Origin: Akkermansiaceae bacterium
Lineage (GTDB): Bacteria; Verrucomicrobiota; Verrucomicrobiia; Verrucomicrobiales; Akkermansiaceae
Direction of reading: 5' to 3'
DNA length: 54,149 nt
NCBI GenBank assembly: GCA_031382045.1
Contig: JANMYL010000118.1
Coordinates: forward strand, 1-54,149
Shown here piece after piece: positions 2,154-5,036 of the stretch; the stretch's first letter is position 1; each line of letters starts with the position of its first letter. The notes below the pieces were generated by a model that saw only the letters and a program-made list of their open reading frames with translations, was not told the DNA's origin and did not search any database. The translations under genes were made by a program, and so were the position numbers.

Positions 2154-5036
2154 TTAGGATTCGAGCATGGATGCGAGCGACGCCTCGTCGAGGATGGGGA
2201 CTCCGAGTTTCTCGGCCTTGTCGCGCTTGGAGCCGCCGCCTTCGCCGGCGAGGACGTAGCTGGTTTTCGCGGAGACCGAGCCGCTGACTTTGCCGCCTTT
2301 GGATTCAATGAGTTCCTTCATTGCATCCCGGTCAAGGCTGAGGGTGCCGGTGATGACGAAGGTTTTTCCGGCGAGTGGCAGAGCGGATAGGTCGGCCTCG
2401 GCGGCGATGGGGAGGTAGTTGTCGGAAACTGGATCAATACCGAGTTCGGCGAAACGGTCGAGGGCGTGTTGGCCGGCCTCGGATTTGAAAAAGGTGGTGA
2501 TGGTCTCTGCCACGGCGGGGCCGACGTCGCCGGTGATGGTGTATTTTACGAGGAACTCGTTTTGCTTTTTAGCCGTGGCGCGGGTGTCGCGGAGGATTTC
2601 CGCTAGGATCGGCGAGTCGGGAATTTGGCCCAGCGTGCGGTGGAGGCGGGAGAGTTCCTTGGCGGCGGATTCACCGAGCTGCCGGATACCCATCGCATAG
2701 AGCCAGCGGTGGAGCGGCTTGGATTTGGCAGCTTCGAGGGCGGCGAGGACTTTGGCGGCGTTTTTCTCACCGAAACGGCGCGGGGATTCTTCGGTGCCGA
2801 GGTTGAGGTTGGCGAGGGTTTCCTCGTCGAGGCGGAAGAGGTCGAGCGGGGTTTGGCAATGGCTGTGGCGGACGAGCGCCTCGGCGACGATTTCTCCGAG
2901 GCCGTCGAGGTCGAGCGCCTTGCGGGAGGCGAAGTGGGTGATGTGGGTGACTGCCTGCGCCGGGCATTGGAAATTGGTGCAGCGCCACGCGACGAAGCCT
3001 TCTTCTTGGCTGATCGGGCCGCCGCAGGACGGGCATTTTCCTTGGACGCTGTCGTAGAGGGAATAGGGAACTGCGGCGTCCGCGTGGCGGATGACCTTGA
3101 CGATGGCTGGGATGATTTCACCGGCTTTTTCAACGAGCACGGTCGCGCCGAGGCGGATGTCCTTGCGGTCGATTTCGTCTTGGTTATGGAGGGTGGCGCG
3201 GGAGACGGTGGAGCCGGAAATGAGCACGGGCGTGAGCTCTGCGACGGGTGTGAGCACTCCGGTGCGGCCGACTTGGATGAGGATGTTGTGAAGCGTCGTT
3301 TCCTGCTGCTCCGGGAGGAATTTGTAAGCGGCTGCCCAGCGGGGGGCACGGGAGGTGAAGCCGAGTTGATCGCGGGCGGCGCGGTCGAGGACTTTGATGA
3401 CGGCCCCGTCGGTGCCGTAGTCGAGGGCGTGACGCTCTTGGTTGATGTGGGCGACGGCTGCAAGCACTTCGTCGAGATTGCGGGCGTTCAGAATTGGCTG
3501 GTTTTGGGGGATGCCGAGTGATCCCAACAGTTCGTGGAATTCATGCTCGGTTTCCAGGGGCGGGCCGTCGTAGGCACCGAGGCCGTGGGCGAGGAAGGCG
3601 AGTGGGCGCTTGGCGACTATTTTCGGGTCGAGCTGTTTGAGGGTGCCAGCGGCGGCGTTTCGGGGGTTAGCGAAGGTGGGCAGGCCAGCTTCGTCGCGCT
3701 CGGCGTTGAGTGCAGCGAAGGCCTCGTTGGGCATGAAAATCTCGCCGCGGACTTCGAGGAGGGCTGGGATGGGAGATTGGGATGCGGTGGTGGGGGCAAA
3801 TGCATCGCCTTGGTGAAGAACCTGAAGATCAATAGGAACGAGTTCGCCAGCTTTGGTTTTAATGAGATTACCAACGTGGGCATCGGCTATTTCGAGGCCA
3901 GACTCATCATTTTTCCAACGGTTGTGACCGTTTGAATGGTAGCCATTCGCCTCGAACCATGAAGCGACTTCGTCCGGTGTCGGGACATCACCAAAAACAA
4001 ACGGTTGGGAGGTGACGAGTGCTGGCCCACGCTCGGTTTCTAAAATTCCGTGGAGAATGATTTCATCGCCGAAAACTCGATTCGCGGCTTTCAGATTATT
4101 CAAATAGTCGATGGCTTCGCCTTGGGCGCCGAAGTGCGGAGGCAGGGTGAACTTGATGACCCGGTGCGAGCTTTGTAGATGAAAAACGGTATGTTCGGAC
4201 TGGCCGCCTAGCTGAGGGTAACTGGCTGCGAGATGTCCGAATTTTCTAGGATCGAGGAGTCGGTTTGACTCTCTGGCCCACGATACCACGGATTCGGCTT
4301 CCTGTCGGATCCGTTGCGAAACATTCTTTCCATCGCTTCTTCCGAGGTCAGCGAGAAGCCTTCGCGCCAAGCTTTGTCCCGCGCTTTGCGCAGGCGTTCG
4401 GCGAGAAGCTGTGTTTGATTCATGGAATTGGAGATAGGGCAGAATTTCGTCCAAGTCAACCGATGGAGTAGGCTCGGCCATGCCCTGAAATTCCAACTCC
4501 AGCGGGATACTGCGGATGGTGCGGACGTTGTGAGTCACGTCGTCTCCGGTCTGGCCGTCGCCGCGAGTGGCGGCGTAGGCGAGTTTTCCATCCCGGTAGA
4601 GTAGAGAAACGGCGACGCCGTCGATTTTGGGCTCGATGGTGACGGCGACGTCATCGCGTTTGAGATTTTTCTGGAGGCGGCGGTAGAAGTCGATGAGTTC
4701 TTGCTCGGGGCAGGTGGCTGCGGATTTCGCGACGGCCTCGGCGCTGAGTTCAAAGACGTCGTCGATGCTGAGCATAGAGACGGCGTGCTGGAGTTGTTGG
4801 AAGCCAGCGATGGGTGCGCCGCCGACGCGGAGGGTGGGGGAGTTTGAGTCGCGAAATTCTGGGTATGTGGCTTCGAGGGTTTCGAGTTCTCGGAAGAGCA
4901 GGTCGTATTCTGCGTCCGAGATTTCCGGCTGGGCTTGGTTGTAATAAAGCCGGTTGTGGTGCTCCAGCTGAGTCCGCAGTTCGCGGATTCGGTCCTGTGG
5001 GCGGGGGGCTTGGGCAAAAAGATCAGGCTGAACCAT
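2154..5036 (-). CDS. ligA: NAD-dependent DNA ligase with an in-frame kinase-like insertion
   Basis: EPKIDG adenylation motif, [29 protein letters not shown] fold, C4 zinc finger, HhH, BRCT (FVITGTL...GSVS). At 960 aa it is much longer than a typical LigA. Confidence 0.97.
4208..4423 (-). CDS. Candidate nested 71 aa ORF in the +1 frame of the ligA insertion
   Basis: ATG at 4423, 7 nt downstream of a -10-like hexamer. Charged helical N-terminus [35 protein letters not shown]. Confidence 0.4.
4431..4459 (-). promoter_or_regulatory. Internal sigma70-like promoter inside the ligA insertion
   Basis: Minus strand TTGACT(4459-4454)-17 nt-TATCTC(4436-4431)-7 nt-ATG. Confidence 0.45.

Follow-up and report, generated by a model that had tools for sequence, protein, structure and literature searches.

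Iyer et al. 2017 (PMC5512222) described Kinase-PolyVal domains, with cassette-like copies, in the polyvalent proteins found on elements of Verrucomicrobia and Bacteroidetes. The accessible part of that account proposes that they phosphorylate host proteins in conflicts, and characterises the family by a lost C-terminal subdomain, a Glu before strand 2, a conserved Gln and retained catalytic residues; it contains no mention of an overprinted partner, an internal promoter or insertion into a housekeeping gene. We analysed a window (the whole stretch of 54,149 nucleotides, contig JANMYL010000118.1 of an Akkermansiaceae bacterium) in which a kinase of this family is inserted in frame into ligA. 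A sequence-only reading had proposed that a hidden promoter and an out-of-frame small gene, a candidate antidote, are nested in this insert.

In Rpn systems an antitoxin gene is hidden within the toxin gene, and its product binds and inhibits the toxin in an anti-phage system (Koonin commentary, PMC10400984). The ligA locus resembles RpnL/RpnS in that a candidate antidote lies inside a kinase, as an antitoxin gene there lies inside a toxin gene. RpnS, however, is the in-frame C-terminus of the toxin, made from an internal translation start, whereas in the ligA cassette the partner is a different protein read out of frame, which overlaps the N-terminus and is served by a predicted promoter, and the host of the toxin candidate is an essential protein. 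RpnL/RpnS are reportedly the intragenic antitoxins of Zhong et al. 2023. An Rpn-type intragenic antitoxin was rejected for the ligA locus on the +1 frame, the N-terminal overlap and the poor conservation of a downstream ligase-frame ATG, which is found in 27 of 123 alleles.

In HipBST, according to the accessible part of PMC9325769, a small protein attaches to a Ser/Thr kinase toxin and, through the P-loop, keeps ATP from binding; the same source gives separate upstream genes, a HipB regulator and a kinase family different from Kinase-PolyVal. Searches of Pfam, PADLOC and PDB gave no sequence match linking the window kinase or peptide to HipBST, PADLOC gave no match for the pair, and no DNA-binding family was matched in either protein by Pfam, PADLOC or NCBIfam. 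Two proteins are encoded together, as in type II toxin-antitoxin systems, selection arguing for translation of the small one. The type II layout is absent: the promoter lies within the kinase coding region, downstream of the kinase start, and there is no bicistronic operon under a single autoregulated promoter. By analogy with HipST, the pair probably operates in the manner of type II toxin-antitoxins, arranged in another way.

In polymorphic toxin-immunity systems, immunity genes normally lie after the toxin's stop codon. The ligA cassette is like them in that effector and cognate partner are exchanged together at a fixed site, and differs in that the partner is overprinted and a secretion module is lacking. 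Small genes in another frame of a housekeeping gene are reportedly known from E. coli GndA, a nested microprotein, and from an engineered relE-in-ilvA entanglement. Compared with these, the ligA small gene is part of a naturally occurring, mobile-like cassette and has been conserved order-wide, so to speak a natural model of gene entanglement.

The literature searched, mostly the main text of open papers, yielded in its accessible parts no out-of-frame antidote on Kinase-PolyVal and no ligA insert, though the supplement of PMC5512222 may list ligase fusions; this includes the parts consulted of PMC9758233, PMC11980606 and PMC12350097. The overprinted small gene is conserved, unannotated and almost certainly real. 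It is probably of toxin-antitoxin kind, in an architecture that we did not find described in that literature, and an antidote role is probable. It offers an unusually clean case of a natural same-strand out-of-frame bacterial gene, selected across genus and order and missed by normal annotation. It would also widen the theme of the antitoxin within the toxin from in-frame genes to overprinted ones, a question that PMC10400984 raises as open.

The ligA insert and its small gene

The features of the locus in the window are as follows.
2154 to 5036, minus strand: ligA, NAD-dependent DNA ligase, 960 aa, with the adenylation domain split by the insert (Pfam, NCBIfam)
3762 to 3781, minus strand: degenerate 7-nt tandem-repeat remnant at the insert 3' junction, clear in relatives and weak in the window allele
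3771 to 4502, minus strand: in-frame insert of ~244 aa, lying between TIRSIP and [10 protein letters not shown], edges approximate
3825 to 4304, minus strand: Kinase-PolyVal domain PF18762 with GGQSEH loop, RVIK lysine, DAHVGN loop and PID aspartate
4208 to 4423, minus strand: overprinted +1-frame gene, candidate antidote, 71 aa, predicted leaderless
4277 to 4405, minus strand: codons 7-49 of the small gene, its conserved core, containing the predicted kinase contacts
4431 to 4436, minus strand: predicted -10 box TATCTC, last base variable
4454 to 4459, minus strand: predicted -35 box TTGACT, from spacing and silent-base conservation

LigA is matched by NCBIfam NF005932 at 731 bits (cut-off 369), and its span from RGDG to EVRGE takes 275 aa in the window allele versus 40-56 aa in insert-free alleles. 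The PF18762 profile matches the insert at 48-52 bits (curated cut-off 27). The kinase ends just past PID, so that the C-terminal subdomain is absent as in the described family; the Glu before strand 2, the conserved Gln and the catalytic residues are all retained, and E76, K90, Q139, D180, N185 and D198 are invariant across 27 aligned rows. The kinase motifs are intact in 127 of 130 alleles and the domain is under purifying selection across the genus. The structural model of the kinase (pLDDT 81.8) retrieved protein-kinase-like folds (best Z 7.2, rmsd 5.8, 128 aligned), and no sequence relative was found in PDB.

Two other readings of the insert were rejected. An intein is contradicted by the lack of any Hint or intein family in Pfam or NCBIfam and by variable junctions, and a polyvalent protein does not describe the window copy, as the kinase sits in chromosomal LigA and not in a multi-effector protein of a phage or conjugative element; four relatives (L040, L142, L155, L328) do have that setting. 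No second kinase copy was found in the genome searched, nor any kinase relative in viral_contigs or among INPHARED phages. At the 3' junction the period-7 match is 0.53 against 0.21 in a kinase control, with 0.37 in the window allele; it is at least 0.5 in 82 of 131 alleles, and the sequence of the 7-nt repeats, evident for example in L019, L023 and L289, varies. These repeats may mark an insertion or deletion mechanism. Some ligA alleles (L002, L004, L008, L011, L027, L035) also have additional stretches of 15-99 aa inserted in frame, close to residue 103 and to residues 818-836.

The promoter geometry proposed earlier is read exactly on the minus strand: TTGACT, 17 nt, TATCTC, 7 nt and the ATG at 4423. 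This ATG opens the 71-codon frame, +1 relative to the ligase, with its stop at 4210-4208, and the small protein measures 60-84 aa in relatives. The -10 had been called imperfect, correctly: a consensus promoter scan omits the 4459-4431 site because the last -10 base is C. As a crude genome-wide baseline, in which the TA signal is confounded by in-frame stops, TTG stands 34-37 nt before 2.9-4.0% of 1506 first ATGs versus 0.9-1.6% of 3615 internal ATGs. An imperfect 11-nt inverted repeat had been said to bracket the promoter; it exists (9/11) in the window allele alone among 123, the alleles otherwise being at shuffle level (mean 6.28 versus 6.32 shuffled), and it was dropped as a cassette part. 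The ligase-frame peptide had been taken for a linker, a description that holds for about codons 4-25 of the +1 frame and fails for the promoter segment and codons 26-71, which are constrained. The promoter DNA is doubly used, the ligase frame at 4460-4434 (minus strand) encoding the conserved, short, amphipathic VDLDEILPY.

The small protein matched nothing in Pfam, NCBIfam, PADLOC or Atlas, and its PDB sequence matches were to hemocyanin only, which we regard as chance. Its database matches (39 and 25 proteins) are mostly of 57-84 aa and labelled 'hypothetical' at most. Fifteen metatranscriptome runs contain parts of the stretch, as contigs in which start and strand are not visible. In the runs compared in detail (X1-X4 and X7), two contigs span the predicted start, X1 (4275-4457) and X3 (4350-4613); in X2 and X4 the deepest pieces lie over the small ORF, the runs having been chosen with that most-conserved stretch. 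The RNA contigs are uninformative on the small gene, neither for it nor against it.

Conservation and selection in the +1 frame

A GTDB query with the kinase returned 38 loci of Akkermansiaceae/Luteolibacter type, every one in ligA, and all 36 complete loci carry the ORF together with the spaced promoter. With a small-protein profile, matches were obtained in 108 of the genus's 209 genomes and in 58 metagenome loci, of which 2 are spurious. The 169 distinct loci comprise 132 ligA alleles with full kinase (window included), 7 with the kinase core deleted, 9 partial loci and 21 others; left out were two loci with an unrelated protein (L233, L234), two truncated or chimeric ones (L230, L272) and the 9 partial loci. 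Codon alignments exclude 9 of the 132 alleles, the motif and peptide-decay comparison 2 of the 132, and the ligA-flank tree 3. Because kin are not independent, the selection tests use disjoint pairs or tree counts. The same ligA insert also occurs in a genome assigned to another family (L152 in G555), by transfer or binning error.

The pattern TTG..-17-T[AT]....-7-[AG]TG is present in 133 of 139 distinct complete ligA alleles, which bears out the 17/7 spacing, and this promoter-ATG spacing stays fixed while the linker upstream of the -35 ranges in length between 37 and 157 nt. The final position of the -10 is poorly conserved: among 123 alleles, 80 have T, 37 have A and 4 have C, with 14 changes on the tree. 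Four alleles with intact kinase (L177, L226, L315, L317) have a degenerate promoter, and one of these also carries A8P in the peptide, which tells against the antidote reading.

An objection raised at the outset was that a 71-codon frame can occur by chance. For one allele it is justified: on random synonymous recoding of the ligase frame, the +1 frame still stays open with mean P 0.43-0.61, and a single open frame taken alone is weak evidence. Across alleles the objection fails, selection and stop counts exceeding chance. No stop interrupts codons 1-47 of the +1 frame in any of 123 alleles, versus stops in the kinase core of 118 of the 123.

Substitutions were compared in 48 disjoint pairs drawn from the 123 alleles. 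Differences at ligase codon positions 1, 2 and 3 are 0.193/0.072/0.070 for +1 codons 1-25, 0.099/0.022/0.051 for codons 26-47 and 0.089/0.056/0.317 for the kinase core. Rates of this pattern indicate that codons 1-25 are ruled by the +1 frame and codons 26-47 by both frames, the tail following mostly the kinase. Suppressed synonymous variation among homologues, proposed earlier as a check, was indeed found: changes silent in the ligase and altering the peptide amount to 0.070 per site in codons 1-25, 0.058 in codons 26-47 and 0.167 in the tail, as against 0.427 in the kinase core. Silent bases of the promoter and start codon are frozen as well. The second T of the -35, a silent ligase third position, changed once on the tree, compared with 24 changes at the first base of the same codon and a median of 32 at kinase third positions; the T of the small-gene ATG, likewise a ligase third position, did not change at all. 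From these substitution patterns the small gene is almost certainly real, that is, overprinted, unannotated and under purifying selection.

Kinase-PolyVal domains outside ligA

PF18762 is present in 134 of 301 genomes of the order. We tested 102 non-ligA kinase domains, the best matches from longer lists, for an ATG-started +1 ORF of at least 40 aa over the kinase N-terminus. Such an ORF was found in 73 of the 102, versus 1 in the +2 frame and 17 in a downstream control; among 39 representatives below 50% identity the count is 30, versus 1 and 6 in the controls. A strict promoter precedes 22 of the non-ligA +1 ORFs (0 in the control) and a relaxed one 44 (0, 0 and 3 in controls). Twenty-nine of the 102 failed the ORF test, some ORFs starting outside the tested interval; the 73 is a lower bound, as the +1 ORF of a ~350-aa kinase subfamily starts upstream of that interval (seen in L090 and L105). 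Members of this subfamily are L089-L096, L099, L105, L107 and L108.

The hosts include FGAM synthase (PurL), NspC, an OppD-type ATPase, MuF_C/LPD3 polyvalent proteins and stand-alone genes, several of them with clear homologues of the window peptide. In-frame kinase insertions or fusions were observed in PurL (L087, L088), NspC (L114, L143, L144, L149) and the OppD C-terminus (L042, L121). The insertions or fusions in these three hosts are independent, and a separate +1 ORF is present in each locus inspected (L087, L114, L143, L144, L149, L042, L121). Of 48 stand-alone-like loci, 18, belonging to one subfamily, have the kinase ATG within the -10 box and 10 nt ahead of the small-gene ATG, and therefore the internal transcript would make the small protein only. 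A polyvalent protein (L040/L050, G354:C47) has tandem kinase domains with a different +1 ORF each, the first preceded by a near-consensus TTGACT-16-TATAAT. Judged from these comparisons, the overprinted arrangement is not special to ligA and appears to be a family-wide trait of Kinase-PolyVal in Verrucomicrobiales.

Predicted binding, loss order and the role of the small protein

Folded alone, the peptide is predicted to form helices at 3-23 and 27-37 followed by disorder (pLDDT 66.7). Modelling it with the kinase, as had been suggested, gave a complex score of 0.83, versus 0.00 for the best of 3 controls; the mark used is attained by 116 of 157 solved complexes and by 2 of 215 mismatched pairs. 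The runs agree in at least 95% of contacts, with partner pLDDT of at least 83. The best predicted contacts join peptide 7-19 to kinase 115-120, 140-144 and 187-196, which lie outside the shared DNA, and contacts also touch kinase 62-88, the glycine loop region. Peptide A14, R15 and A18, all near-invariant, fall within the contact stretch. On these models the peptide is predicted, with high probability, to bind the kinase.

We infer that the small protein is an antidote. As a mechanism we consider it likely that the kinase is a toxin held off by this overprinted antidote, which would be made in excess from a leaderless sigma70-type transcript; the toxin would be released once the antidote is no longer supplied or is displaced by a trigger. 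Kinase would be produced solely within LigA, because the promoter lies inside the kinase coding region and no downstream ligase-frame ATG is conserved, and the small gene would be transcribed from its own internal promoter. The peptide would wrap the kinase N-lobe, hinge and beta7-beta8 region, keeping the kinase off; were peptide synthesis lost, for example by phage shut-off of host expression, a growth-inhibiting kinase would be freed. The phage trigger is a guess, and a somewhat doubtful one.

The listed predicted contacts include none of the catalytic residues E76, K90, D180, H182, N185 and D198, so an allosteric or structural partner would account for the interface just as a blocker would. 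The small protein could then be a second subunit required by a truncated kinase, one short of most of the normal C-lobe, either to activate it or to complete its structure; the pair would serve as a signalling or conflict enzyme. The family lacks the C-terminal subdomain (accessible part of PMC5512222), and the peptide is partly disordered when alone. The contacted elements are presumably the alphaC-beta4 loop, hinge and beta7-beta8, as mapped from motifs, which suits a subunit too. The loss order speaks otherwise. An activator could be lost first by a ligase-silent +1 stop, yet 0 of 130 intact alleles show one, and loss of the kinase first happened about 6-7 times; a separate promoter that excludes the kinase start also suits an inhibitor made in excess. 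We regard the second subunit as unlikely.

The loss events, which are few, were placed on a ligA-flank tree of 146 sequences with many weakly supported nodes. The kinase core is missing, with the ORF core retained, from 7 alleles at 6 points of the tree, 2 alleles at 2 points lack promoter, ORF and kinase N-lobe, and 8 insert-free ligA alleles are scattered tips. In one allele (L254) catalytic residues are lost and the ORF is intact. A kinase-core search matched 119 genomes, 102 of them with a ligA-type copy (at least 57% identity). Among these 102 the ORF is present in 98, 2 are contig ends and 2 have N-lobe deletions; no intact kinase without the ORF was found among them. As deletion is evidently viable, the selection acting on the catalytic residues calls for more than addiction as its explanation. 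An active kinase seems useful at times, which points to defence or other conflict.

Alleles are also swapped. Among 75 pairs with flanks at least 90% alike, 30 have kinases less than 75% alike; between L005 and L181 base identity is 97.8% in the flanks, 68.2% in the kinase and 78.5% in the peptide region. Kinase-peptide cassettes are thus exchanged between lineages. A domesticated module, in which the kinase tunes the ligase or DNA repair under reversible inhibition by the peptide, with no toxicity, would account for purifying selection on the kinase genus-wide and for its presence in about half of the 209 genomes. Repeated clean loss and allele swapping resemble conflict, however, not housekeeping, and the host seems incidental, since the design recurs in PurL, NspC, OppD and polyvalent proteins and in kinases that stand alone; we consider domestication quite improbable.

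The 7 kinase-deleted alleles bear on a further possibility, namely that the small protein acts independently of the window kinase, for example guarding against kinases of invading elements, the overlap being historical. In these alleles the ORF is retained with little change, and 5 of the 7 keep an intact promoter; relaxed selection on the orphan peptides was not shown, and their little decay may reflect recent kinase loss or a second role. Set against this are the predicted binding to its own kinase, the swapping of peptide along with kinase and the eroded promoters of the other two alleles (L223, L299), so that a purely independent role is very improbable; such a role is compatible with the antidote reading, the two not being exclusive. 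That conservation of the ligase frame produced the +1 frame and promoter as a side effect can hardly be credited: one open frame is expected by chance and VDLDEILPY is itself conserved, but variation shifts to ligase codon position 1, silent bases are frozen and +1 ORFs exceed controls family-wide.

Returning to the antidote, the earlier picture of a nested gene with promoter geometry in a self-contained cassette is supported by selection, loss order, complex prediction and recurrence in other hosts. Through overprinting, a one-piece in-frame cassette would carry its own antidote into any protein. Tentatively, and not far from an open call, the cassettes may form a self-immunising class in which antidote gene and promoter are overprinted on the effector start, insertable in LigA, PurL, NspC, OppD or giant polyvalent proteins, with alleles swapped and the host protein turned into an anti-phage tripwire. 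'Low-complexity linkers' before other domains of polyvalent proteins may hide such genes generally. If the antidote reading is true, it explains how toxic domains sit inside essential or giant multidomain proteins with no neighbouring immunity gene, and the uncharacterised Kinase-PolyVal gains a cognate partner, with which its cloning and testing should become feasible.

Downstream of ligA and convergent with it lie two genes (371-1997, plus strand). The first (371-967, plus strand) encodes a DUF6036/AbiEii-like nucleotidyltransferase and the next ORF, ending at 1997, has no NCBIfam match; the two are possibly a type IV toxin-antitoxin pair. An ORF at 31-324 resembles what we take to be a transposase fragment.
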